Positions 2,394 through 63,935 of a stretch of 64,000 nucleotides of DNA are shown piece by piece. This DNA is from Leucoraja ocellata (Eukaryota). The stretch covers positions 5,704,001 to 5,768,000 of the forward strand of contig JAWMAR010000030.1 of assembly GCA_036785375.1 (NCBI GenBank), written 5' to 3'. Positions within the stretch are counted from its first letter, which is position 1. Each line of letters opens with the position of its first letter. Under the pieces are notes generated by a model, which made no database searches, had not been told where the DNA came from, and saw only the letters and a program-made list of their open reading frames with translations. The position numbers were made by a program, and so were the translations under genes.

Positions 2394-5300
2394 TGAAGTC
2401 TAATGTTGAAATAGCGTATTTCTTTCTGCATTAGATAATCCATTATCCATTGTGTAATGGATAGAAAACAATGCTTTATCACCAACATTGCCATAATTCA
2501 TTATTGATCCAGTGTACATGTATCATAATTCACTTTCAATCACACAAAGTGCTGGTCATATTCACTCTTTGCTAATTGTGAAGATTTGGCATTCGGTATT
2601 TTCAGCTAGTTCCTGTGCTGGTTACCTGTTCTGTAAAATTATTACACAGGTAACTCCTGGTAACCACAATGATGTTTCCATTGCCAATTCACTATCAAAA
2701 TATTAAAGCAAATTCAAAAGCCTGAAATATTCAGCTAAATTGTTTGTGTTTCCAAAAGCTTTCATGTGTGCTGATAGATATGTCAAGTCTTCATCCCTTT
2801 CAACATTATGTCATCACCTTTCATTGAGTTATGCCAGCACATGTCCCTTTTCACTGCTACATTCATTTCTTCCCCACTGTTCTTTCCACTTTTAACACTT
2901 CATACACTGTCCAGGGTGCTTCTGGCTTAGATGGACAGCCTGGACCACTGGTGAGTTCTGTATGTCCATTCTCCTAGATAGTTCGTGCCTGCTACACTGC
3001 TGTTGGACTGCATTGTGAATTTAACATCGCTGGAATCCATGCCTGTACAGTGAATCATTACCATTGTCAATGAAGCATGAGATATATGCCAGTGCATGCG
3101 ACTGCTTAATTAACATTTTGGTTTACCATTCGGATTAGGAAATGCTTAAGTAACGTGACTGTTCAATGGCTACAAATATTGCAGCCACAGCGTTGTAATT
3201 CTGGTAAATTAACAAATGTAGGAAATGAAGAATTAAAATGCTTTTAAACAAAATTAGTTTTGTTGAGCGGGATGCAATTTTGGTTCTAGCAATTGTCCTA
3301 CATTTACATATACCAAAGCAATCTGTGGTTTACAGTAAATCTATCCTGTCTTAGTAGGTCTGAAGCATTTAATGTTGATGTGTAACTTGGGCCTATGATC
3401 TTACTGAGTTATACTGACCAAAGTGGACCCTTCAAATTAAAGTGTAACACATATCCATGCTGCAAGATTTGTTGCACGGATTCCGAAATCATTGCGATAA
3501 AATTCAATTTCGGTCGATTAGAAAGGGTAAAGTACTCATGCCAAATTTCACTCCCAATCTATATTCTCTGGTGTCATTTATGAAACCCCATTGCTAGGCT
3601 GAGCTTCTGCGATTCCATACAGTGGCCTGTACAGTCTTTGATAAGTTAATGTATTGTAAACATCCCATCCATTTAAGCAAGTTAGCATAGAAGTTAATCG
3701 GTTTAGCCAAATTGTTCAGAACACCCCAAGAGAGAAAGTCTCCTCAAAGGTAAACTTTGCAAAAGTGAAGAAAATCCCTCGGTTGTGACTAACTACTTGA
3801 TCCAACCACTAGGTACAGAGTTCCGAAGATCAGAGCAAGAGACATCCCACCTCCCATTGACTAGTATTTCCCTCAAGAACAGGACTAGCTTGTTGATAAT
3901 CAACAATGCCCTGGAATACTGATATTCACCACAAAATACACTTTCCTATTCATACATTCATTACTCAGTGGAACTCGTCAAAATTATAGTCTCTGCCTAA
4001 GGAGCATTGTTGCAAGGTTAGTAGACGCCTAGTAGGACGATTTATGTCCCCACCGGCAGGAACCATGCCCATGAAGTGCTAGCTCTACTACTTGGAAGTG
4101 GCGAACCCTTCTGTAGGGTATAGGTACCTTCATAATCATGTCCAGTAACCAAGACAGCAATTGGCACTGCAGTGTATCAACATTTCAAAGTGTACATTAG
4201 TGAGACTGGATTTCAATTAGATTCATTTCTTTGGCAGCCCACTTGAAAATGCAGATGCACGCTTTCTGTTTAGCTGGTTCTTCCCTTGCTCAGGATTACT
4301 AGATTTTAACAAAATACATCACAGGTTTTCAATAAAATAAGAAATGCACAGACCTAAACATAACTATTCCGTTTTTTATAATATTGGAAAATAAATCACA
4401 GTGTCGAATGAGGCTGAATTATGTCTTATGTTCCCCTGCCTTCTTGAAGGCTCTGAGATTTTTTAAAGGAACATCACCAGCCTATTACTGCAGGGACCGC
4501 TGCAAAATGTAGGAGAATATGCCTTTTTTTTTTAGTTTGTTACTGCAGAATTGGACCCTTGAGCTAGATGCAGCAGATTTTTTTCAACCTTTCATAGTGG
4601 AGACGGAACTTGATCCCTTTTTGTCATGTTATCAGTTCAATATATGTAGGCTGCTCCAGTACTGGATATTCTCTAGTAATTTTGCATTGGAATCAAAAGC
4701 CTCCCTCATCCCTTGCCTCCCTCACACCTCAACCAAAGAATATCTGTCCATTATCCCACTGGAGTAGATATATTTATTTGTCATGTATGCTAATCTGCAT
4801 ATTAAAATAGCAGGAGTTTGTACTTTGCCTCAGAATGTCAGTAGAAAAATGACTGAAGCAATTTACAATGCATTTTCCATATATAATTAATGACCAAGAG
4901 AAATGTCCAGCCTTCACTGTGCTGCATGGTGGCTTGTCCTCAACAGTAGTTTATGTGCATTTTCTCACATGAATCAATACAGTAAGAAAGATTTTAATCC
5001 CACAGTAAATAAAAACCAAAAAAAAACTGCAGATAACAAAGATCTAAAATCTAAAGGAAAAAATCCTGGAAACACATAGTAGATCAGGCAGCATCTTTGG
5101 AAAGTGAAACTGAGTTAATTTTCCGCATTGGATAAAGTGTTTCTCTTTCCTCAGATGCTGCCTGACCTGTTCGATATATCCAACATCTCAATTTTTATTT
5201 CAGATGGTAATTTTAAAAAGCTGAAAAGAATTTGAGTAAGCTCATTAATGTCCCTGTATGCCTGTACTGACAAAATTACTGAGCTTTTTTACTGCATCAA

Positions 5301-8300
5301 TGAGCCAAAGGCTCTTCAGATAGTTATCAGCAATACACAGGGCAACAATCTTATTTTCCCATGGGTACCTGATAAACAAAAGAGGGCCATGCAGACTACA
5401 TTTCCATCTACATAAATTCCACGTAAACGGCCAAGGATTTTATCCTACGGTCTATATTTTCTTTTCATTCACTCGCCCGTCCTAAGAAACAATGTAACTT
5501 GATTGTATTTGTATTGTATTTTAGAACAGAGCCACAAAATGGCAGTGTTAAGTCTCTTGGTTCACCATTTCTAAATTCACCTGTTTGGCCACATAGAAGA
5601 CACAAGAGGAGACACATGAAATTGGTGGGCAGATGAATTCAAGGCACTGCCTCATTTTATATGTTCTACAGATCCTATTCATCACATTGGCAAAACCCAG
5701 GCTTATTTCACCAACAGAAATGCCCCAGTCCTACTAAGAATGCGCTACTTAATTTTCTTTAGGCTGAGCAACTGGTTCATGTACTATTCTCTGAATGATC
5801 TAAGTGCCCTTCCGCTCTAATGCTAGGCCTTTTTTGTTAATGGCATTGTTGCTAGAAAACAGGTGAGGGTAGTGTGTTGTTCTTAAATATATAAATATAT
5901 TCATTTCTATGTAGGGTGTACCAGGGCCAGCAGGACCAAAAGGAGAAAGGGTAAGAGTGAGACGAAATGTGGGCCATTGGGCTAAGGCAATTTCAATTGC
6001 AAATCTCCATGGACACCGTACAGAATAGTAAATAGTTGAATGTAAATGCTTATGACCAATATTTTAATTCCAAGTGATTTTATGTGCAAATTTATTGGTA
6101 TGTATCGTGACTTTTAGGTCCTCACTCCATGTGAGAGATTACAATAGATGGGCATAAAGATTGAATTTATAGTAAAATTAATATATTTTGCATTCTGATA
6201 TAGTGACTACTCATCTTGTGTATATATGGCACAACTGATAAGTGGCAGCATATAGTAATGCCAATTATGCAGTAACCCTACACATGTCCAATTTTGCAGC
6301 TAAGCAGTTAAGAAAACTACAAGCCAATATCTTTGCCTGAACCCTTTACTTGTTTTGATGTTGGTAATTGCTAATGGAAAAAGCATCAGATTCGGGGGAA
6401 GTCATAATTCATTGCCTATGGACATTCAATTATACTTTGTCACATGTACCTAGGTACAGTGAAATGGTTTGTTTTGCATACAACCTGGTAAAATCATGTA
6501 GCAGTCCTCATCCAGGCAGTATACAAGTGTTACTATGTTTTGGTGCCGATGAAGACAGCAAGAGTAACTCAACGCGTCAGGCAGCATCTCTGGTGAACAT
6601 GGATAGTTGACGTATCCTTGGCTAGAGTGCAAGATCTTCCCTCATTGGCAAGATGTACAGCCTTTTTTGAAGGTGCTGTTGATTTCATTACAGGAAACAT
6701 AGAAAATAGGTGCAGGAGTAGGCCACTCGGCCCTTCGAGACAGTACCGCCATTCATGGCTGATCATCCACAATTAGTACCCTGTTCCTGCTTTCTCCTCA
6801 TATCCCTTGATTCTGTCTACCAGAGATCAATTTATAAATGAGTCAGAAGTATAAAATTATCAAAGCCATATTGTTCACTTCCAATCAGGAAACTTACTTG
6901 AAATTCAATCCAAGTATTCAAAATATATGTGGATTGCTCTATCCGAAGCTGTGAGGTTGAACTGAGTACTTAAGCAACATTGACAATGGGCTGGATGAAG
7001 GACAGCATAAATAATAAAAGTGGCTGGAGTTGGTTATCATTTGTTGTTTGAAGTCCAGCTTTGGAAGGAGCAGGACTAAATATTTTTGATTCCCAGCTTG
7101 AATTTCACATGCATTTCTTGTTAGATGTTTGCAATATGGATACAATACCTTCAACGCTGAGCATCATAAATCCTCTCATCGTTTATGATTTTATCTCGGG
7201 TAGGAACTCACAGACAGTTACGGTCATGACCCAGAGGTGAGGTAGGAGCAGTATAAAACTAAATGCCACATGCAGAATTCTATCTTCTCCGAGACAAAAT
7301 AATAAACGTGAAACTACAGCAGAACTCAAGAATTAACAAAGATATCTATACGTCAGTTTAAAAGCCCATGGCTGATCTTTGACACAACTGTATATTTTTC
7401 CTAGACCCTTTCACTAGATCCCATACTACCTATGGTTAATAAAAGATGGATCACACTTCTTGTCATTCTTCAATAATATTTCATCAATATGCCCAAGTTC
7501 TAGACTTCCCCCAAGCAGAAATGGCTTCTCTCTCATCCATCAGTTCCTTTTAATATCTTGTAAACTTCATACAGATCTGCCATAACCTTCTAGATGTACA
7601 GTGAATGGGGCCTTAGATTATATCATCTCCTAATTTATACATTGGAGTCCAGGAAACATTTGGATAGATCAACGTTACTCTTCCAGGGCCAGTATATCCT
7701 TCCAATAATGTAGTGCTTAGAACATGCACACAATACACTCAGTGGTGTGACAAGCAATCATGTAGCTGTAACATCAAACCACAGGTGTGCCAAACATTTG
7801 GAAGCAATGACTGGTATTTCATTGTGTAGGAAGGAACTGCAAATGCTGATTTGAACCGAAGATAGACACAAATAGCTAGAGAAACTCAGCAGGATAGGCA
7901 GCATCCCTTCTTCAGACTGAAAGCCACGGGAAGGGCCTTCGAGAGATATTGGTCTTTTTATTTATTTTAAGCAGAGAGAGGAGGTGATTCTGACTCCTGT
8001 GGGAGTGGAAGTGAATGGTGCGTAGATGGAGCAGTAAGGAGATGTGGGATGTTGTCAGTAATGCAACAAGTCAAGGAGAGAATTAATAGAGATTATTAAG
8101 TCACAGGTAACTTAATAAAGTGGCCACAAAAATCTCAATGTCATGACGTTCATACTAAAGAGATTACACCTTTGAAGAGTGAGGAAGGTATCCGAAGGGC
8201 AGGTCTATTGATTCAAGAACTTTAGAGATTATGACAGGTTGTGTTTAGACATGCACGTGCACTTCCTAGCAAGAGTCATTGAAAATGACCTGAAATGGAG

Positions 8301-11300
8301 CACTGCCAGATTTTTCTTCATTTCCTCAATCTTTGGCATCATTATGGCATCCGCATATAATGATGTCAAATAACTGGGCAATAAACACAGGGTGGTCCTG
8401 GTCAGTATGTCTCGGTTGTACGCAAGCTGATTTAGTTATTGGTCAGCAAAATATATATTTTTCAATGCAAACTTTGTACACCATGTGCATAAGAAAGATA
8501 AAGTGAAACCCATCTAAACATTCATCGCAAGAGCATAAACGTGAGCACATGCCCTCTGTAAGTATTCAACCATGTGCACAAGCTCATCTCAATGAAGAAC
8601 TTTTGTTGTAGCTTTAATTGAAGAAGTTAGTATCAATTGATAGAATTAACACATTTTACTTTGATTATATGGGCTGTTCGCTAATTTTGTTTAATTGGTT
8701 TTGTTTTAGGGCGATAAGGGAGACATGGGAATTTCAGGACCAACGGGACCACGGGGATTACCTGTAAGGACGCTGGTTAATATGTTGTGTTCTGAAATAG
8801 TCTAATTTTAAGTAATGCAGCTGGTGGGATTTGAGTTTCATTTGTGTTTGGTTTGTTATTGGCTTAATATTGTCATGTCCACCAGGACACAGTGAAATAC
8901 TTTGTTTCGTGTGGTATCCAGGCAGATCACATCATTTATGAGAACAATTATACCATATATGGTGCAACAGGTATCCCAAAAAAAGGAAAGGGAGCAGAGT
9001 GCAGAATATAGTGTTATACCTAGAGAAAGTTCTGATTTTAAAAAGTGCAAATGCTGCAACCAGATAGTTTGGAAGATCAGTAAAATTGGGTGGGTTCAAA
9101 ATATAGATTCCAATACAAGTACTCCTAATTCTTGCCAGATGTATCGAGTTAAAATTGGTTTGGTTCATGGCAAGTATGGAATGCGTTTTATATCCCACCA
9201 CATGGTAAAACCAACAGGGAATTAACTGTGACATTAAAACAAATCTACAAAATACTCGTTATTGTTAACGTTATCTCAAGGTTAAATGGTAGACAAAAAT
9301 GCTGGAGAAATTCGGCGGGTGAAGCAGCATCTATGGAGCGAAGGAATAGATGACGTTTTGGGTCGAGACCCTTCTTCAAGATTATATGTATCATCAGGTG
9401 GAGCTTTTAGGAGTATCACTTCCAGTTTGGGTTTCTGGGAAAACTAGTTCTATCAATCAGCACCCTCCTCAATCAATCCAACTCAGATATTAAAGTATAA
9501 TTCAAACCATGGTTGCAAAACCACATATATACATCTTCATATGGACTTTTGATCAACAAAGCTGACCAATTTGTCTACCAGGTCCATAAGAAAGTGCGTG
9601 TGTGCTTTGATTGTTAGCCCCAGCACCACCCCCTTACCTTGGCAAATGCAAAGTTTGAAAATTACCTTTTTAGATGCAACACCAATAAGTGAGGCACAAA
9701 ATCTTTTTTTCTTTCTTTTTTTTTTAAAATATTTTATTTTATTAGAAGTAAGTACAGTCATATGGCACCAAAGTGCCTAATATATATTTTCATAATACAT
9801 TTTATGTACAACTTCTTTTTGAGGCACAAAATAAAAGTAATCCAATGTCTGTACTGTTATCACTGATTGGTATCCCACATCCTGTGGTTTGAATAGTTAT
9901 TATCTGCAAACCGTTGGCTGGTCAATAAAGATCTCCTCTGGAAGCGATCTGACGTTGATGAATTAAGATCACCGTGGTCTCTTGCTCTGTCTCTCTTGCT
10001 TGTAAACCAGTAATACTTTCATTACCGGCTGACCACAGATGGTGTCTAATCAGTGAAGTAATTTCAAATTGAGTTTTATTGATGACTGTGTGTTGCCTCA
10101 TATTAACTCAACTTGAGAAATATGACCTCTGCTAATGTCTTTTTCAGGGTTCACTGGGACCAACGGGTGAAAAGGGAGGCCGGGTAAGAATGAATGGTCT
10201 TCTGCATGGTCTCGTTTATGTGGACAATTATGCTAATATGCATGTTATTGAAGTAAAATATCAGCTTTATTTACAAGGACCATATTTTCCTCTGGATGTT
10301 ACATTTGGGAGGTGTGCAAAAAAAAAGACAAAAAATATAGCAAACAGTAACAAACGTTGTATCTGATTCAATCTGGGAAGCCCTCATGGGAAATGCTGGT
10401 GAGAAACAATGTTCTTCTTTGGATTCATCAAGGGCAGGTTTTGCTAACCATGGGGAGAACTCTGGCAGAATAGCACCTGAATGTTGGGAAGGTGTTTGCT
10501 TGAAGAATAATGAATGAATATGGAATCAGTTGTGCATCAGAAACATGTCCCCTTCCATGCCAAATGTTTTTCCTCTTCATTTATTCCATTTGACCCCATG
10601 AATCCTGGCAACATCCTCATCCTCTGAACACTTTCCAGCTTAATGTTTCCTATCACAAGGTGACCGAATCTGAACACCATATTCCAATTACATCCTCACT
10701 AGTGTCTTGTACAACCGTAACATAATGTCCCAACTTCTATACTCAATTGTGTAGGAAGAAACTGCAGATGCCGGTGTAAACCAAACATAGACACAAAATG
10801 CTGGAATAACTCGTGGGGCATGCAACATCATTCCTTCTCTCCAGAGATGCTACCTGTCCTGCTGAGTTACTCCAGCATTTAGTGTCTATATTCTATACTC
10901 AATTCGCCGACTGATGAAGGCCAGCCTGCCAAAAGCCTTCTTCACCACCCTGTCTACCTTCAATGCCTCCGTCAGGAAACCATTTGTACTCCTAGACCCC
11001 TTTGCTCTGCAACATTCCCCAGGACCCTACATTCACTGTGAAATTGCTGTCCTGGTTTGACACCCCAAAATGCAACACCTCACGTGTATCTGAATCAAAC
11101 TTCATTTTGCCATTCCTTAGTCAACTTTCCTAGCTGATCAAGCTCCATCTGTGAATCTTGACACCCATCTTCACTGTCTATGATAACACCCATTTTAGTG
11201 TCATCTGCAGACTAGCTCGTCATGCCTTGTACATTCTCCTCCAAATCATTGACTTCGATGACAAACAACAATCTGCCTCCAAATCAATAAAGCAACCTTC

Positions 11301-40300: not shown

Positions 40301-43300
40301 ACCGAGTCTGCACTGACCAGCGATCACCGCACATTAACACAATCCTACACACACTAGGGGCAGTTTTATATTTATACCAAGCCAAGTAACCTGCAAACCT
40401 GTACGTCGTTGTAGTGTGGGAGGAAACCAAAGATCTCGGAGGAATCCCATGCAGGTCATGGGGAGAATGTACAAACTCCGTGCAGACAGCAGCCGTAGTC
40501 AGGATCGAACCCAGGTTTCTAGCGCTGTAAGGTAGCAACTCTACCACTGCACCAGTGTGTCACCCTATATGACCTTGTGAAACATTGACCAGCCTGACTT
40601 GTCCACAAGAAGCAGATCTGCCTGCCACCGCCCATTCATCTCCTCCCGATCATCAGCAAAGTGATGGATGGGATTTGACCATGATTATTATCATTGAACC
40701 TCCCAATGTCAATTTCCTGGGGGCTACTGTTGACAAAAGCTGAACTGGAGTGGACATATATGGATATTATATTATGTATATATACACAATGTGGCTACAA
40801 ATGTAGGTCGGAAGCTAGGATTCCTGCAGTGAGTTACTCACCTCCTAGCTCACCGAAAAGCCCTGTCCCACGGTACAAGTTCATTCCAAGAGCTCTCCTG
40901 AGTTTGCCCAGATTCGAACTCGGAGATTTACAGTAATGGCCACTCGTCGGTACTCGGGGCTCTCGTGGACATTTTTCAAATGTTCACAAGTCTTCCCGTG
41001 CTTACCTGCCGTTAGTGAGATTTGCTGAGTACCTGCCATTCGTGTTACGAGCCGGTAAGAGACGTACCCGAGCTCCAACGTACCCACTACGTTCATTCTC
41101 CGTGCCTACCACGAGTTTGAGGTTTTTTTTAACTCGGGAGAGCTCTTGGAATGAACTCGTACCGTGGGACAGGGCTATAAGCCTGTCCACCATCCACAAG
41201 GTTCGAACCAGGAGTGTGATGGAATACTCTCCATTTGTCTTGATGTGTGCAGCATCATCAACACTCAAAAACCTCAACACCACCCAGGGCGAAGCAGCCT
41301 GCTCGATAGGCAGCCTATCCACAACTATTCACTCATTTCATCATCGCTGCCCTGTAGCAGCAGTTTCTACCATCTACGGGATGCATTGCAGCCACTCACC
41401 AAGACTCCTTGGAGAGCACCTTCCAAGCCTACAATCTTTACCAGGTGGAAGAACAAGGGAAACAAAAACATGGGAACACTACAAACTGGAAGTCACCCTC
41501 CAGGTCACATGCCTTCCTGACTTGGAAATATATCACAATTCCTTCACTCACTGGGTCAAAATCCTGGAGCATCCTCCCTTACAAAACCTCAAGGACTGCA
41601 GATATTCCATAACCACCACCTTCTCCAGTGTCAGAGTCATAGAATGATATAGTGTGGAAACAGGCCCTTCGGCCCAACTTGCCCAACATGTCCCAGCTAC
41701 GCTAGTCCCACCTGCCAGAAATCAGTGCAATCAGGAATGGGTAGTTCCATGAAGGAGGGTCTGAAGAGGGGTTTCGGCCCGAAACGTCGCCTATTTTCTT
41801 CGCTCCATAGATGCTGCTGCACCTGCTGAGTTTCTCCAGCAATTTTGTGTACCTTGGGTAGTTCCATGTCACCTCAACTTCCAAAGCCCACATCCCTTGA
41901 AAAAATAATAAAAAGGTATAATCAGACTCTTCTGGACTTTATCTTGCACTAAGCGTTATTGCCTTTGTCATGTATCTGTACACTGTGGCCGACTTGATTG
42001 TAATCATGTATTGTCTTTCGAACAAAAAAGCTTTTTACTCTATCTGGGTGCACACGATAATGACCTAAACTGGCTGGGCTTTTCAGGACAAGCTCTTCAT
42101 TCAAGTTACACAGATCAGAAAAGGTCATACCCCTCATTTGTCTATGAGTTGGAATTTGGAGCAATAAGGAGCCTTGTACCATGAAGTATAAACAAAATAT
42201 TTATCTTCCTAGATCACTACAGGCTTGCAAATGATGCCAGTAGCATATCTATTCCTATGCCTAATCAATCATTTTTTTACTATCTACCTTCAATGCCGTA
42301 GTAATGTTCAATCTCTCCATCTCTGCTAGGATTACTACGATAAGGGCGATTATATCATTCGTCAAGGAGAGCAAGGTAGCACCTTCTTCATTATTGCAAA
42401 AGGAAAGGTAGGAGATGATGTATATTCATGAATTTATCTGTGGAGTCCCATTGCTATGAGATGTGATCCCGCTAAGGGCAATAATTCTTGGATCTTTTTT
42501 TGAAGGAGGATTTACTGCTTTTTGTGATAGCAGTTGTCTGTGTATTAGTAAATGAATGAACCAACTTGCATTCTAATCTTAATTGTATGATCTAAACTGA
42601 TTGATTGATGTAAGAGTGGTTGCAATTTTTTGCATTTCTGGTGGTGCAATCTACAGCGTGAGTTTAAAAGGTGTCTAAAAAACTATAAATAAGTGCAAGG
42701 ACATGCCTTAGTGAAATTTCGTCCTCAATCCAACCACCAAAATAAACAGAGTGATTTTGTTTGCTGAGTGTACCGCAGGTGCCTATGTACTAATGCCACA
42801 TATAAAATGTGCTGTTTGAAGCCATTTTCAAAGTCTTGCATCATTTTTCATCGCAATCTAAGAGAGGTCAGGTTTGGGGGAGTTCCCACCACCACGGGTA
42901 CCATGTAATCCCGTGCTACCTGTTCAATGATCGGATAGTCGGCCACTAAACCATCTCCGCCACCTGGTTTGCCAGGTGACGAGGGGGCTGTGGACCTCCA
43001 GCCGGTCCAAAAACAAGGCCCGTCAAAGGGCAGATGAGTTCCTAGCGAGCCAATGGCCATCCACACTTCAGTAGAAGTTGCGATCACTGTCGTGCACGGC
43101 ATTGTAAGGCACCATGCCTGTTGATGTTTTCAACAATGATGATGATGATTAGAGAGGAAACACACAAATGCAATAACTGCCATGTTGCCAGACTATCAAT
43201 TAGCAATGTGACAAGTTGTTCTGAAATAGAAGTTGTTTCTGTTAATGTGCATTTGTATCTGTCTGCTATTGAAAGATGTGAGGGCTCTTGTGGTTTTATT

Positions 43301-52300: not shown

Positions 52301-55300
52301 TAGAGTGAGACAAGGGAGTGGAGAAGTTGAGGCTGCTTGGTCGGGCAGGGCGTGGGAATTGATGAAGTCGGTAATGGTGCTAGAAATGGCTGTCTCCTCC
52401 CCTTCCTTAACCCTCTAGCTGTCTCCTCCCACCCTCCCATCCACCCGCCCTCGGGCTCCTCCTCCTCCCCTTTTCCTTCCTTCTCCCCCCCCCCCCACCC
52501 CCCAACAGTCTGAAGAAGGGTTTCGGCCACAAACGTCACCTATTTCCTTCGCTCCATAGATGCTGCTGCACCCGCTGAGTTTCTCCAGCAATTTTGTGTA
52601 TCTTCAGAGCTCAGGAACAGTTTCAGTTTAGTTTACTTTAGAGATATAGCATGGATATAAGCCCTTCAGCCCATCGAGTCCGCACCGACCAGCGGTCACT
52701 GCAGTCTTAAGAATGGTTCTGACCCGAAATGTCACCTGTTCCTTTTCCCCAGAGATGCTGCCCAATCTTGTAGAACCCAGTGCCATTTCCAACATTCAAC
52801 CACATATTTTAACTCATTTTAACCGGAGCAAAGAATAGGTTCTGTTGCGAGACTCTTTCAAAAATAATAAGGGAAATATCTGATGGCTATCTAACTGTGA
52901 CTTATAGGTTGTACCGGACTTTCCGAGATTCCAAGTATGTGTATATGCTCATGGAGGTGTGTCTGGGCGGGGAGCTGTGGACCGTCCTCCGTGACATGTG
53001 AGTGTATGTCATTTTTATGTTCCAATGTTTGAATGTATTTCGTCAAAATGCAGGAAGATTGCTCCCGATGTTGGGGAAGTCAAGGACAAGGGGTCACAGC
53101 TTAAGGATAAGGGGGGAAATCCTTTAAAACTGAGATGAGAAGAACTTTTTTCACACAGAGAGTGGTGAATCTCTGGAACTCTCTGCCACAGAGGGTAGTC
53201 GAGGCCAGTTCATTGGCTATATTTAAGAGGGAGTTAGATGTGCCCCTTGTGGCTAAGGGGATCAGAGGGTATGGAGAGAAGGCAGGTACGGGATACTGAG
53301 TTGGATGATCAGCCATGATCATATTGAATGGCGGTGCAGGCTCGAAGGGCCGAATGGCCTACTCCTGCACCTAATTTCTATGTTTCTATGTTTCTATGTC
53401 AATCCATGTCCATTCCAATGCAGGCTACTGTGTATGGCCACTGTTAGGATTGCAAGGGAGGTGGAATATAAGCCATCATCTATCTATAGATCTGACAACC
53501 TTACCTCAATTCCAATGGTCTTGGATAAAATATAGGTGGAAAGTGCTGGGAATACTCAGTAGGTCAGGCAGCATATGTGGAGAGAGAAAGAGTGTTATGC
53601 CTCTTAACCTCTGGAGACTTTGCGCCCTGCTCAAGGTTTCCGTGCGGTTCCCGGAGGTTGCAGGTAGTGGAAGCAGGTAGGGAGACGGACAAAAACCTCC
53701 GGGAACCTCCGGGAACCGCACGGAAACCTTGGGTGGAGCGCAAAGTCTCCAGAGGTTTCCGTTCAGGTTTCCTAAGTGGGACAGGGGCATTATTGTGTTA
53801 TTGCTTCAGGTTGATGATCTCCAATGTCTAGAAAAAAGTTGCAGCACAGATTCACCAAAGAGGGAAATGGTCTTAAAAATGTTTTCTTAGGGACAGATTT
53901 TCTCACAGTTCCTTTCTTCAAGGTTGAGGTCTGCTCTTAAAAAAATATCAAATGATCTACTCGGGTAGAGAAGAAGCCAGAACATGAACATTAGAGCCAG
54001 GTCACTCAAAGGTGAACTCACAGAAAGGACAGTGGTAAACTTCCTTAAGTATCTGTGGATGTGGAGGTCACTGTACTTGCCATTCTTTCTACTGTGAAAG
54101 GTGAATCCCAAGGAGAAGGCGATTCATTGAAACTGATACAAAGTATTAAATCCCAATCACACAGCCAGGTAAATTCCAATCAATGGGAATGCAGCTATGT
54201 GCTCCCTTGTGCACAAATAAAAACAAATGTCCACAGATAAATCAGAGTCCGAGCCATTGACCTTAAGTGGCCTTAAGTCACTGATCTTAAGTGGGTCAAG
54301 TTTAGGTTGAGTTTTAAATGTGATTCTTTCTGTTGACCTATCTGACCAAACCATCCTGGGTAATACATTCTTCCAAGCCCACAATATGGACAGGTGGCAA
54401 TAATAACTAGTTCCATGGCAATGCAGACTCTCGAGATGCCTCACAAGGACACTATCAGATAGTAGGAGAAAAGAAAACTGATCCGTCCATTAAGGGAGCT
54501 GAATCTGTGTTTGTGTTCACAGGTGTTTCTTTGAGGAACCGACAGCCAGGTTTTGTGTTGGATGTGTTGTGGAGGCTTTTGATTATTTGCACAACAGAGG
54601 AATCATTTACAGGGATCTCAAGCCTGAGAATTTGCTGCTGGACTCTGACGGATATGTGAAAATGGTACGTATTGATCCAGTGGAACCAGTAACAACTCAT
54701 ACCGTGCACTGGCAGATACAACCTCCATCAGTCAGTCTCTCATTGACACAATACATCAGCAAGTAAATTCTCACCTTAAAGCCATCCCTCTAGCATTGGA
54801 TATTTCCATCTTGGGAAAAACAACTGACCATCTATGCTATCTTTGCCTCTCATAATTTTATATACTTCCATCAGACCTCCTCTCAACCTCCAGTGTTCCA
54901 GAAGAAATAATCCAACCTCCCCCTGTGACTAATTCCCCTTAATTCAGGCATCTTTCTGATAAACCTTCTCGGCATTCTTTCCAAAGCTTCCACATCCTTC
55001 CTGTGTTGGGTCACTAGGACTACATGCAATACTCCACATGCAACCATACCAAAATCCTATAAAGATGCACCATGAATGACTTCCTGACTCTTATACTCAA
55101 TGGCTACCATCAAACTGTTGGGTACGTGATCCTGCGGTGCAACCATGATTGCCTTGAATTACAATTACATCAGCTACCAGTCAATGGATTATAAAGGGAT
55201 GAGAAAGGTGCTATTTAAATGAAACTTTCATTGCTTTGAATAAATTGACCCCTGGAGACACAAGGAACTGCAGAACCTTGTGTTCCAAAAAAGGACACAT

Positions 55301-61300: not shown

Positions 61301-63935
61301 ATAAAGGATAAAGGGTATATAGTGCAAGATAATGTCCGATTAAAGACAGTTCAAAGGTCTCCAATGATGGAGATGGGATGTCAGAACCACACTCAAGCTG
61401 ATGAGAGGATCATTCAGTTGCCTGATAACAACTGGGAAGAAACTGTTCCTATATCAGGATAGACACAAATGCTGGAGAAACACAGCGGGTGAGGCAGCAT
61501 CTATGGAGCGACGTCACCTATTTCCTTCGCTCCATAGATGCTGCCTCACCCGCTGAGTTTCTCCAGCATTTTTGTCTACCTTTGATTTTCCAGCATCTGC
61601 AGTTCCTTCTTAAACAGGCAAGAGATAGAAAGGTGTGAGAATAACCAAGACTCTTCAGCAGCGGAGCGCTGGCAAATGACAGGCCACACACCACGTAATT
61701 TGTAGATGTCCAGCATGGAGGTTGGTGAGCGGGTGAATGGCTGCTCTTCAGTCCCCTTTCATTCTGCTGTGGCCCTTTTGAAAGTAATTAAGATCAACGG
61801 CGGCAGCGTGGGCCTCGGCTGCGGTGGGAGGAAAAGACAATGGGGACCCAGTGTGGGGGTACCGCTGTGAGAGAGGGTGGGAGAACAAAATGGGACCCGG
61901 TGTGGGGGAGGGGGGGGGGCACTTTAGTGTTGGAATCCCAGGGGATAAGTCTGTGTTTGTTCCTTTGTTCTGGTGACAGCAGCCAGCCAACAGTCGCTTG
62001 TCTTTTTCTTTTCGTTTTCACTTCTAATTTCAAGTTACTGTGTACCGTGTGTGTTGCGACTGTCGGCAGACCAATTCCCCTCCGGGGATGAATAACGTTT
62101 TATCGTATCGTATCGTATCTCCCAGCGGTGAACACAAAACAATCACTAGCGCTGTCCAAAATAATTCACGGCACAAAACATCCGGAGGTCTTTCAGGAGC
62201 GGCGATGCCTCACTAACACATTATCATGCAGGAAAGATCAATGTGAAAACTAGATACTTTCTCCTTTATAAAAACATTATAGCTTTCATATTCAATGGGA
62301 GAAATCATTGCAATGCTTGTTAATATGCACAAACCTCTCAGGGATCCTTGAGCTATCTATCACTCTTTAATTGATAGTTACTGCAAAGAGAATAAATGAT
62401 CTCTTCTCTAATGATAAAAAATTCCTTGTCCTGTCACTTTGTTTTCAGATGGTTTCAAGGCTTCGACTGGGAGGGGCTACGGGCTCGGAAAATGAAGTCC
62501 TTGCTTAAAAGAGAGGTAACAATGTTAATATTGTTTAACACGCTTCTAAAACAATTCACAGACACCCAGGCATCATAGGAAACTATTCCATAGAGAATCA
62601 TTGTAGAATCATGGACTTACTGCCCATCAAGCACACACCAGCCAAAGAAACGTTGTTTAGGCTGATCCCTGATCCCTTGAAGGTTGCAATTCAATTGAGA
62701 TACTTTCCTACTTGATTGCTTCTACTGTGATTTCAAGAGGTAAATATACAGATTCCAACCAAGCTTTGAATGAAAATGCATAATCTCTACATCATTCTGA
62801 TTCTATCACCAAGTATCTTAAAGCCATTGACCGTTCTACTAAAGGAAGCAAAAAAAGATACAAAGTGCTGGAGTAACTCAGTGGGTCAAGCAGCATCTCT
62901 GGAGAACATGGAGAGGGGACATTTCAGGTGAACTTTCTTCAGACTCTAAACAGATGTCTCCTTCATCTGAAGAAGCATCCTGACCCAAAACATAACCTAA
63001 CCAAGTTCTCCATAGATACTGCCTGACCCACTGAGTTATTCTAACACTGTTTCTTTTTTTTGTAAACCAGCACCTGCAGTTCCTTGTATCTATTAAAGGA
63101 TTGTAGTTTAGAAAATTAAAAAAGTATTGAACCTGCTCCATTATTCAACAAGGTCATGGTTGATTCTTCAACTCAACTTCACTTTGATATGGAATCTGTA
63201 GTCTATGTATCCTCATATCCAAACATGTCTCTATCTCAGAGTTCAACATACTCAGAAGGTGAATGAGATTTCTCATTCCAGATTTAAATTGACAATCACT
63301 TATGTTAAGACTTAGCCATGTGAGAGTGGACTCTCCAACCTAAGGAATAAGCCTCACCATGTCCATCCCACCAAGCTGTCTAAGTGTATTAGGCTTTAAT
63401 GAGATTGTTTGTCTGAACCCTAGTTTTTGAGAACATCAAACCTAAGAGATTCTATTCAGCGTGAACATCAGACCTAAGAGGGTACACAAAATTGCTGGAG
63501 AAACTCAGCGGGTGCAGCAGCATCTATGGAGCGAAGGAAATAGGCGGCGTTTCGGGCCGAAACCCTTCTTCAGACTGATGGACAGACCTAAGAGACTCAT
63601 TTCATCAGCATTCAGATGTTATTTTCAGAATATATCAAAAGGTGGAATTTGCAAGTCAACCAGCCTTATTTGGTTAAAAATTAGTTATAATTGCAACCTG
63701 TTAGGAGAAGACTGGTTATTGCAGAGGAGCAGAATATTTGTTGATTCAGGTTCATAAGAATGAGTTACTCCAGCACTCGGTGTAAACCAGCATCTGCCGT
63801 TCTTTCTTACACCATCTTATGTTTCCTTCTTGCTTTCAGTTGCAAGGACCAACAGACCACAGCCACTTTGACAGCTTCTGCCGTAACAATGAACTGCCTC
63901 CAGATGAGTTCTCAGGCTGGGATGAGGACTTTTGA
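30956..63935 (+). CDS. PRKG2L: cGMP-dependent protein kinase 2-like; complete, 18 coding exons, 754 aa
   Basis: Exon phases join without frameshift (2265 nt). N-myristoylation start MGNGSV, leucine zipper, pseudosubstrate [47 protein letters not shown], kinase motifs [21 protein letters not shown] and [11 protein letters not shown]-terminal GWDEDF*. Paralog identity (PRKG2-like vs PRKG2) is inferred from linkage to COL13A1. Confidence 0.9.
33320..33486 (+). CDS. PRKG2L: PRKG2-like coding exon 2
   Basis: [18 protein letters not shown]...GNHLYVLA; AG/GT; 167 nt. Confidence 0.95.
33535..33703 (+). mobile_element. PLE terminal-repeat derivative with near-intact hammerhead core
   Basis: CTGAAGA-AGGATCTCGACCC-GAAAGGTC at 33611-33638. 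Confidence 0.8.
35120..35487. mobile_element. Composite PLE remnant (inverted repeat, ORF start, repeat)
   Basis: Minus-strand hammerhead core at about 35179-35206; ORF start region 35298-35352; + strand repeat 35369-35487. Confidence 0.75.
35544..35657 (+). CDS. PRKG2L: PRKG2-like coding exon 3 (CNB-A phosphate-binding cassette)
   Basis: [38 protein letters not shown]; 114 nt. Confidence 0.95.
36245..37262 (+). mobile_element. Degraded CR1/HER1 LINE ORF2 (RT region) and tail
   Basis: Traces of [31 protein letters not shown] and SKFTDDTK; 3' tail shared with the HE1-like SINE. Confidence 0.85.
37507..37612 (+). CDS. PRKG2L: PRKG2-like coding exon 4
   Basis: [35 protein letters not shown]; 106 nt. 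Confidence 0.94.
38479..38542 (+). CDS. PRKG2L: PRKG2-like coding exon 5
   Basis: [22 protein letters not shown]; 64 nt. Confidence 0.94.
38990..39415 (+). mobile_element. Rex1/Babar-type LINE 3' fragment
   Basis: ORF 38905..39264 [13 protein letters not shown]...[16 protein letters not shown]. Confidence 0.75.
40258..40565 (-). mobile_element. V-SINE (HE1-like), full length
   Basis: Reverse complement of 957-1282. Confidence 0.85.
40859..41176. mobile_element. PIF/Harbinger-type MITE
   Basis: About 46-bp TIRs starting AGCCCTGTCCCACGGTAC / GTACCGTGGGACAGGGCT. Confidence 0.85.
41752..41854 (+). mobile_element. Short PLE terminal-repeat insertion with 14-bp TSD
   Basis: TGGGTAGTTCCATG at 41738-41751 and 41855-41868. 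Confidence 0.88.
41757..41792 (+). ncRNA. Minimal type I hammerhead ribozyme motif (PLE-type)
   Basis: GGGU-CUGAAGA-G-GGGU UUCG GCCC-GAAA-CGUC-GCCU: intact core, stem II hairpin, palindromic ACGU in place of stem III, possible 4-bp stem I. Activity untested. Confidence 0.7.
42330..42407 (+). CDS. PRKG2L: PRKG2-like coding exon 6
   Basis: [26 protein letters not shown]; 78 nt. Confidence 0.95.
42868..43150 (+). mobile_element. Non-autonomous retroelement with (GAT)n tail, RTE-like
   Basis: CpG-rich insert, tail gatgatgatgat, flanked by AGAGAGG at 42861-42867 and 43151-43157. Confidence 0.6.
43313..43407 (+). CDS. PRKG2L: PRKG2-like coding exon 7
   Basis: [31 protein letters not shown]; 95 nt. 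Confidence 0.95.
44983..45051 (+). CDS. PRKG2L: PRKG2-like coding exon 8
   Basis: [23 protein letters not shown]; 69 nt. Confidence 0.94.
46205..46501 (-). mobile_element. V-SINE (HE1-like)
   Basis: Reverse complement of 957-1282. Confidence 0.85.
46762..46829 (+). pseudogene. Decayed duplicate (pseudoexon) of PRKG2-like coding exon 8
   Basis: 68 nt vs 69 nt. Aligns to 44983-45051, and the downstream intron aligns too (gtcttcct.tggagtgaactttcat). In-frame TGA TAA. Confidence 0.85.
47231..47329 (+). CDS. PRKG2L: PRKG2-like coding exon 9
   Basis: [33 protein letters not shown]; donor gtcagt; 99 nt. Confidence 0.92.
48248..48398 (+). CDS. PRKG2L: PRKG2-like coding exon 10 (kinase Gly-rich loop)
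   Basis: [11 protein letters not shown]...[12 protein letters not shown]; 151 nt. Confidence 0.9.
48555..48725 (+). mobile_element. V-SINE fragment
   Basis: A and B box remnants (gggtttgatccc); internally deleted. Confidence 0.7.
49122..49258 (+). CDS. PRKG2L: PRKG2-like coding exon 11
   Basis: [45 protein letters not shown]; 137 nt. Confidence 0.95.
49589..49745. other. Assembly gap (157 N) in PRKG2-like intron 11
   Basis: Run of N, preceded by (ATCA)n, (GT)n and a PLE repeat. Confidence 0.99.
52045..52601. mobile_element. Penelope-like element insertion: inverted RT fragment plus 3' terminal repeat, 15-bp TSD
   Basis: ORF 52032..52313 (-) [33 protein letters not shown] carries the PLE DKG motif; + strand repeat at 52390-52601; CTTCAGAGCTCAGGA at 52030-52044 and 52602-52616. 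Confidence 0.9.
52908..52997 (+). CDS. PRKG2L: PRKG2-like coding exon 12
   Basis: [29 protein letters not shown]; 90 nt. Confidence 0.95.
53045..53400 (+). mobile_element. Young CR1/HER1 LINE 3' end
   Basis: Near-identical to 55655-55987; ends in (TTTCTATG)n. Confidence 0.9.
53598..53789. mobile_element. PIF/Harbinger-type palindromic MITE (left TIR partly deleted), TTA TSD
   Basis: TTA|TGCC...GTGGGACAGGGGCA|TTA; same family as 56872-57087; inserted in a PLE repeat. Confidence 0.85.
54523..54664 (+). CDS. PRKG2L: PRKG2-like coding exon 13 (catalytic loop)
   Basis: [47 protein letters not shown]; 142 nt. Confidence 0.95.
54760..55102 (-). mobile_element. Old CR1 LINE fragment
   Basis: Antisense similarity to the CR1 ORF2 C-terminus (caatactcca, ataattttatatacttc). 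Confidence 0.65.
55412..55987 (+). mobile_element. Young CR1/HER1 LINE 3' end nested in a PLE repeat
   Basis: ORF 55353..55904 [18 protein letters not shown]...[12 protein letters not shown]; the host repeat is split at ctccggagatg / atgctgcctga. Confidence 0.93.
56872..57087. mobile_element. PIF/Harbinger-type palindromic MITE
   Basis: About 80-bp near-perfect inverted arms TGCCCTTGTCCCACTTAGGAAAC.../...GTTTCCTAAGTGGGACAGGGGC, preceded by TAA. Confidence 0.88.
58013..58176 (+). CDS. PRKG2L: PRKG2-like coding exon 14 (DFG, activation loop)
   Basis: [28 protein letters not shown]...ELLTG; 164 nt. Confidence 0.95.
58809..58931 (+). CDS. PRKG2L: PRKG2-like coding exon 15
   Basis: [40 protein letters not shown]; 123 nt. 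Confidence 0.95.
59847..59909 (+). CDS. PRKG2L: PRKG2-like coding exon 16
   Basis: [20 protein letters not shown]; 63 nt. Confidence 0.94.
60044..60368. mobile_element. PIF/Harbinger-type MITE, TAA TSD
   Basis: TAA|AGGGCCTGCCCCACGATGCG...CGCATCGTGGGACAGGCCTT|TAA, with an internal inverted repeat. Confidence 0.88.
61458..61616. mobile_element. Foldback PLE terminal-repeat derivative
   Basis: Arms 61469-61511 and 61527-61570 are near-perfect reverse complements. Confidence 0.85.
61660..62119 (+). mobile_element. Non-autonomous LINE derivative with (ATCGT)n tail
   Basis: Ends aattcccctccggggatgaataac...(atcgt)3, a hairpin-plus-microsatellite tail; 5' boundary uncertain. Confidence 0.55.
62449..62515 (+). 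CDS. PRKG2L: PRKG2-like coding exon 17
   Basis: [22 protein letters not shown]; 67 nt. Confidence 0.95.
62850..63092. mobile_element. Inverted pair of PLE terminal repeats
   Basis: Minus copy about 62855-62946; plus copy about 62967-63090. Confidence 0.8.
63481..63582 (-). mobile_element. Short PLE terminal-repeat insertion with 12-bp TSD
   Basis: CAGACCTAAGAG at 63469-63480 and 63583-63594; near-identical to 41752-41854 in reverse. Confidence 0.88.
63840..63935 (+). CDS. PRKG2L: PRKG2-like last coding exon
   Basis: [31 protein letters not shown]; 96 nt. Confidence 0.95.
   Translation: MQGPTDHSHFDSFCRNNELPPDEFSGWDEDF

Follow-up and report, generated by a model that had tools for sequence, protein, structure and literature searches.

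The window analysed here, the whole stretch of 64,000 nucleotides of Leucoraja ocellata contig JAWMAR010000030.1 (positions 5,704,001 to 5,768,000), carries exons of a gene that, from its motifs, we take to encode a cGMP-dependent kinase (PRKG). These exons span about 31.3-58.1 kb of the plus strand and encode two cNMP-binding parts and a kinase domain; the first of them lie near 31.3, 33.3-33.5, 35.6, 37.5, 38.5 and 42.33 kb. Between the last two of these lies an insert of 103 bp (41752-41854) enclosed by perfect direct repeats (14 of 14 bases), in the sense orientation of the host gene and 461 bp ahead of the acceptor at 42329. The initial annotation had described both the repeats and the sense orientation, and its placement in intron 5 holds if coding begins with the exon at 31.3 kb. 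Shortly before the insert, positions 41635-41717 hold a piece of a different repeat, presumably related to a shark LINE tail, which it resembles. The features referred to below are the following.

41738..41751, plus strand: 5' target-site duplication, 14 bp, identical to 41855-41868
41752..41758, plus strand: junction filler, non-family bases (AAGGAGG); the family reads CCC[C/G]ATCAGT upstream of the core
41759..41760, plus strand: GT, first family-derived bases and 5' arm of helix I (2 bp); putative 5' end of the template RNA
41761..41768, plus strand: hammerhead core C3-A9 (CTGAAGA, 41761-67) and the extra nucleotide before stem II (G, 41768)
41769..41780, plus strand: stem II, 4 bp (G10.1-C11.1), with a UUCG loop
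41781..41788, plus strand: GAAA (41781-84) and CGTC (41785-88), with palindromic ACGU, loop III absent and a GUC triplet; predicted cut after 41788
41789..41854, plus strand: helix I 3' arm, then the remainder of the pLTR, ending here at the first start site of reverse transcription
41855..41868, plus strand: 3' target-site duplication, 14 bp, identical to 41738-41751
42330..42407, plus strand: next host exon, a cNMP-binding part (AG acceptor, 26 codons, GT donor)
52378..52603, plus strand: young copy retaining about 132 nt of the PLE 3' UTR upstream of the core
63481..63581, minus strand: second young solo copy in the window, with a 12-bp duplication, beginning about 8 nt before the core

The repeat family to which the insert belongs accounts for 49 profile matches in the window (3,575 bp, 5.6% of its length), 28 of them near full length, which makes the earlier estimate of roughly 30 copies a fair one. 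A loose core pattern matches the window 16 times, against 8.0 +/- 2.8 in shuffled versions (none of 100 shuffles reached 16); taken alone this is modestly above chance, and the real support comes from the repeat family. A scan of the window with Rfam at gathering thresholds gave no match. Genome-wide (3.44 Gb), a 24-nt core pattern has 34,623 exact matches and its reversed control none, while 744 kb of untargeted DNA yielded 299 profile matches, which extrapolates to about 1.4 million with both arms of inversions counted. Copies were compared in a sample of 1.344 Mb that comprised, besides the window, 68 stretches of 10 kb taken without targeting and 60 that each had an exact core match at their centre; as the latter make up 60 of the 129 stretches, the young set is biased to intact cores.

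The hammerhead and the bases that precede it

The insert carries an intact hammerhead core in the order of type I, C3UGANGA9 ... G12AAA15 ... UH17, at 41761-67, 41781-84 and 41787-88, and a palindromic stem III (ACGT at 41784-87), as had been recognised from the start. The core is also better preserved than the sequence downstream: the majority sequences of the eight clusters are identical in 14 of 15 core columns, compared with 39 of 60 columns downstream. Among the young copies, ACGT followed by C or T is found in 85 of 93, and the cleavage triplet is GUU in 66 and GUC in 19 of the 93. GUU is the majority triplet of the youngest cluster (98% identity). An extra nucleotide follows A9 (G41768 in the insert), and stem II is closed by G-C in 220 of 306 copies. 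For this stem the initial annotation had looked to covariation as a check. Three of its pairs are essentially invariant, one is U-A (154 of 306) or U-G (110 of 306), and the loop varies; these changes are one-sided, and no two-sided compensatory change was found among the eight cluster majorities (306 copies).

Folding models, which omit the core contacts, disfavour the hammerhead both as a monomer and as a dimer. It is absent from the unconstrained fold of 41738-41868 (z 0.15), its energy exceeds that of the ensemble by 3.3 kcal/mol for the 56-nt core and by 5.1-6.8 kcal/mol in context, and the dimer hammerhead (-27.9) would cost about 16 kcal/mol relative to the cofold minimum (-43.6). A permuted type III hammerhead that would cut just before the core was also considered and discarded on paper, as its stem III would fail to pair.

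The nine nucleotides before the core had been regarded as part of the element, with GGGT as the stem I arm. Only the last two of them, GT, belong to the family, and AAGGAGG is junction filler. The family reads TCAGT at this place, the majority sequence in all eight clusters even though TCA is unpaired in helix I, which leaves a helix I of 2 bp; this is its length in 72 of the 93 young copies. In the insert, by contrast, the filler provides a helix I of 4 bp with a 6-bp extension. The same filler recurs in the genome (71 exact matches to a 21-nt pattern and 54 to a 33-nt pattern). Since it is found across several subfamilies with unrelated upstream flanks, and is often the end of an inverted arm (three of six independent young loci), it was likely copied, during 5' joining, from the antisense of the arm downstream in the element itself, which would be the reason why it pairs with 41789-41801. 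The idea that GAAGGAGGGT identifies a master element whose helix I is long was rejected, because in the 30 loci inspected per pattern the matches come from several subfamilies and either have inverted arms or are flanked upstream by unrelated sequence.

The autonomous parent element

The relationship of the family to Penelope-like elements (PLEs), already proposed in the initial annotation together with the PLE tail, is borne out by the sequences that extend some copies upstream. Among the best 30 genomic matches, six run into a common 3' UTR rich in pyrimidines, three of them as far as an ORF that ends in a GIY-YIG domain. A stepwise 5' walk led to an element of about 4.1 kb (L191) in which the repeat, the pLTR, stands at both ends of an ORF with RT and GIY-YIG domains. 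The first bases of its 5' pLTR are the GT at the two positions before C3; the region equivalent to 41789-41854 continues directly into the 5' UTR and the ORF, whose start codon is likely about 160 nt after C3. The whole insert, except for the seven filler bases, matches this pLTR; it lacks an optional tail of about 36 nt.

The ORF of L191 is interrupted by frameshifts, as are those of the other copies examined. On L142 and L006, Pfam reports RVT_1 (E 4e-4) and GIY-YIG (E 2e-4 to 0.014), both below the Pfam cut-offs. The protein has 172 relatives of at least 829 aa at E <= 0.001, the best with 53% identity, and those listed bear no informative names. A linker of the form CX2-5CxxC (CNRKKCNTC) precedes the endonuclease in the translations of L006, L020 and L142, and a DKG motif is present as well. 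These features point to an endonuclease-positive PLE, probably of the Neptune/Nematis type. The N-terminal part of the ORF (L191, L234) contains a proline-rich block of tandem repeats of about 27 nt whose number differs among copies, and when complete the ORF would encode about 1,250 aa, which exceeds the length of most listed relatives.

Solo and ORF-linked copies fall in common clusters. In the two youngest subfamilies, the end of a GIY-YIG ORF lies within 900 bp upstream in 39 of 102 copies, and in the subfamily of the insert 19 of 63 copies are linked to the ORF in this way. A pyrimidine-rich upstream tract like that of the PLE 3' UTR is kept by members of all eight clusters (16-67%, against a background of 2.4%). 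The initial annotation had presented the family as a distinct non-autonomous, SINE-like one, and this part of it is not supported: as judged from these comparisons, the insert is a solo copy of a PLE pLTR rather than a member of a separate SINE family.

Copy ends and the origin of the solo copies

Ninety-nine young copies starting at the core were sorted by an automatic rule into 42 long, 37 short and 20 inverted ones, and inspection moved three from short to long. Accordingly, the 5' ends of 54 lie no more than about 8 nt from C3, while the other 45 extend into the 3' UTR or the ORF. Only two of these 45 end between -9 and -120, and the remainder are spread past 4 kb. After de-duplication, the short or inverted young copies (n = 55, including the three reassigned) have G at -2 in 50 cases and A at -3 in 34; a match to the family upstream sequence of eight or more bases is found in none. 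Their 5' ends are not confined to one base, as those of the short copies spread from -2 to about -8. The 3' ends of young copies fall into two classes about 36 nt apart, at about +94 or about +130 from C3. Thirty loci chosen by the start of the ORF gave a related picture: eight begin at the core edge (six of them independent), 15 are partial tandems and seven are cut inside the pLTR.

Copies bear target duplications, and head-to-head inversions are frequent (20 of the 99 young copies are inverted). The 149 neighbour pairs within 400 bp comprise 89 head-to-head, 30 tail-to-tail and 30 same-strand pairs; tandem arrays were not found, and just one of these 30 same-strand pairs has intact cores in both members.

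Junctions were also counted throughout the genome with a filter requiring that the four bases upstream all be unlike the family, which gave 2,097 at -2, 426 at the cut site and 81 at a +4 control; the anchors differ, and of true junctions about 0.32, 0.21 and 0.21, respectively, get past the filters. The cut-site count is thus about five times the control, and among 11 independent cut-site loci two are simple insertions, the other nine being inversions, internal deletions or an insertion. A clean excess of copies beginning at the cut site was found neither in the junction-filtered counts nor in these 11 loci, and a small excess may exist. Perfect head-to-head tail palindromes joined at 2-nt GC microhomologies occur genome-wide at two sites, with 33 and 70 loci. 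Those at the cut site were considered as a record of cleaved templates, an idea that was abandoned because they number 33 loci, whereas a control GC lying 14 nt downstream has 70.

The short copies and the full-length element begin at the same spot, the Initiator-like TCAGTC, and the former are therefore likely reverse transcripts that run from an internal priming site to the 5' end of the RNA. That these ends lie a short way before the core and not at the cut site speaks for an integrated template that was uncleaved and probably began at this point. As suggested by the DNA junctions and the motif, RNA polymerase II would start within the pLTR at TCAGTC, which we take to be a match to the Inr consensus, and GAAACGTC would occupy +24 to +31 as the counterpart of the downstream element of Penelope. 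By analogy with an anole element, the RT would have two internal sites at which it can prime. Copies of 95-135 bp would arise when it primes in the 5' pLTR of a full-length template, or on a short transcript initiated in the pLTR, and long, variably truncated ones when it primes in the 3' pLTR. The template RNA would be uncleaved, and the hammerhead would cut, if at all, only as a dimer or aided by the PLE protein. Joining of the 5' end to the target would then have added the seven filler bases, lengthening helix I of the insert by chance. An extra G copied from the cap and one created at fold-back junctions are not separable among these ends. On the whole, it is quite likely that the insert is a solo pLTR copy, reverse-transcribed from an internal priming site to an RNA 5' end two or three bases before the core, and that it is probably inert in its intron, this single copy being most likely without effect.

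In a poly(A) run from a related organism (X24; 10,109 reads, about 6% of the run), RNA reads show no pile-up of molecule ends on the full-length element; the library is a fragmented one and cannot reveal starts. In the same reads, most bins of L191:2000-4200 have first mates on the PLE sense strand in about 2-4-fold excess. If the library is of the usual stranded kind, this bias would represent PLE-antisense RNA, possibly host transcripts with antisense copies.

The solo copies could instead constitute a SINE-like lineage in which pLTRs with an internal promoter are transcribed by themselves and re-copied by the PLE enzyme. Their very high number (about 1.4 million by extrapolation) would fit such a lineage, as would the putative Inr and DPE-like positions contained in the solo unit and the composition of the older clusters: in these five clusters only 16-29% of copies keep the pyrimidine-rich upstream tract, the 70-85% that lack it counting as solo, and the end of the ORF lies within 900 bp upstream in 13 of 189 copies of the older clusters, several probably by chance. 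However, the insert's own subfamily is ORF-linked in close to a third of its copies (the 19 of 63 given above), long members are present in every cluster, the 5' filler crosses subfamilies with unrelated flanks and so marks no single lineage, and the 3' ends coincide exactly with PLE priming sites, with neither a poly(A) nor a simple-repeat tail. We therefore regard this origin as unlikely for the family, although solo copies, above all those of the older clusters, may propagate themselves and small solo-only sublineages may exist. Somewhat less probable still is ordinary 5' truncation, that is, priming at the 3' pLTR by an enzyme that stalls just past the hammerhead, at its structure or at the C-rich tract, and not at the end of the RNA. 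PLE insertions are mostly 5'-truncated according to a recent preprint (bioRxiv 10.64898/2026.07.22.740005), the C-rich tract starts directly upstream of the core, and the scatter of 5' ends over about 7 nt would be expected of a stalling enzyme. Nevertheless, a structural stall would not be expected at the position of the ends, which is upstream of the helices; the next 110 nt hold the ends of so few longer copies (2 of 45); and full-length elements stop at the same place, at a site that matches the Inr.

The remaining alternative concerns the activity of the insert rather than its origin. With its 4 + 6 bp helix I and its GUC triplet, 41752-41854 might be an active ribozyme that cuts the kinase pre-mRNA. 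Its core is intact, its orientation is sense, and it is one of only four among 93 young copies to reach at least four contiguous helix I pairs. On the other hand, the hammerhead fold is predicted to be unfavourable as a monomer and as a dimer, and the absence of loop III makes a partner necessary, while the nearest upstream sense copy (39.7 kb) has a broken core. Moreover, a minimal hammerhead monomer tested by others failed to cleave and dimers were slow (PMC4209133). Taken together, these data make an active intronic ribozyme very improbable, and a solo pLTR copy that ends at the start of its RNA remains the preferred reading.

Relation to known Penelope-like elements

Minimal hammerheads in PLEs have been known since 2014. 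The results and discussion of Cervera and de la Pena (2014; PMC4209133), where no cartilaginous fish is named, describe them for the pLTRs of metazoan PLEs, most of them being single, dispersed motifs that derive from truncated elements; two reviews (PMC6765202 and PMC6155905) also treat them. The metazoan motifs share with the skate family the type I core, the extra nucleotide between 9 and 10.1, the G10.1-C11.1 pair and the palindromic 15.2-16.2 without loop III. Helix I has 2 bp here and in D. virilis, but 4-5 bp in the schistosome motifs; the youngest subfamilies here differ in being mostly GUU, and the copy number is far above the 4,000-9,000 given there for coelacanth and Xenopus (PMC4209133).

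With regard to the coding part, the CX2-5CxxC linker has been assigned to Neptune and Nematis by Craig et al. (2021; PMC8557442), who also describe for these PLEs other traits found here: an RT followed by a C-terminal GIY-YIG, the DKG motif, partial tandems, inverted 5' copies and an optional tail of 30-40 bp. The skate element departs from them in the long proline-rich repeat block of the N-terminal ORF part and in the absence of (TA)n targeting from the flanks examined. None of six chondrichthyan names appears in one supplement of that study (PMC8557442).

The closest experimental counterpart is Poseidon of Anolis carolinensis (PAc), whose RT starts internally at the two sites that bound the tail and uses uncleaved RNA (Frangieh et al. 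2024, PMC11167929). As in the skate family, the PAc hammerhead lies at the junction of pLTR and ORF and two RT start sites bound the tail; the PAc template is uncleaved, as the skate one probably is, with no ends at the cut site in PAc and no clean excess of them in the skate. The PAc hammerhead needs the protein in order to cut and is dispensable for insertion in vitro (PMC11167929). The PAc ORF, however, begins inside stem II, whereas here the start codon is likely about 160 nt after C3; the skate element differs also in having the linker zinc finger; and the main text of that paper does not describe solo copies whose starts cluster sharply at the core edge, as they do here (PMC11167929). 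The role of the PLE hammerhead was left open in that work and in the consulted portions of Craig et al. 2021 (PMC8557442).

Transcription from within the pLTR also has a precedent, as PLE transcripts have been described to start there from an internal promoter of the Inr/DPE type, with a downstream RGACGTGY element in D. virilis Penelope, in Schostak 2008 (PMC2377424). Tandem retrozymes and PLEs have been surveyed across vertebrates, one chondrichthyan included, in the preprint text of Li et al. 2026 (bioRxiv 10.64898/2026.07.22.740005). As described in that text, the non-LTR retrozymes resemble the solo copies in being pLTR-related, non-coding and provided with a type I hammerhead, but they form tandem arrays with complete hammerheads, whereas in the skate single units or head-to-head pairs lie scattered, each with target duplications of its own. 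Our search of the literature found no description of this skate PLE family, and the supplements of Li et al. 2026 may list it.

A more far-reaching proposal, which we put forward only tentatively and consider doubtful as a whole, is that the core of cartilaginous-fish PLEs doubles as a Pol II promoter. The Inr TCAGTC would set the capped end 3 nt before C3, with a GAAAC-GU box at the downstream-promoter position (+24 to +31), and the resulting RNA would have a helix I of 2 bp that makes self-cutting impossible. About half of the insertions would be strong-stop-like cDNAs of the first 95-135 nt, seeding on the order of a million promoter-bearing mini-copies, and fold-back junctions would occasionally complete helix I, as in 41752-41854, thereby turning such copies into cleavage-competent intronic ribozymes.

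Whatever the fate of that proposal, the family provides a very large natural data set of copies that start just upstream of the hammerhead core and not at its cut site. For genome annotation, it means that a dominant short repeat of this genome belongs under solo PLE pLTRs and not under SINEs.
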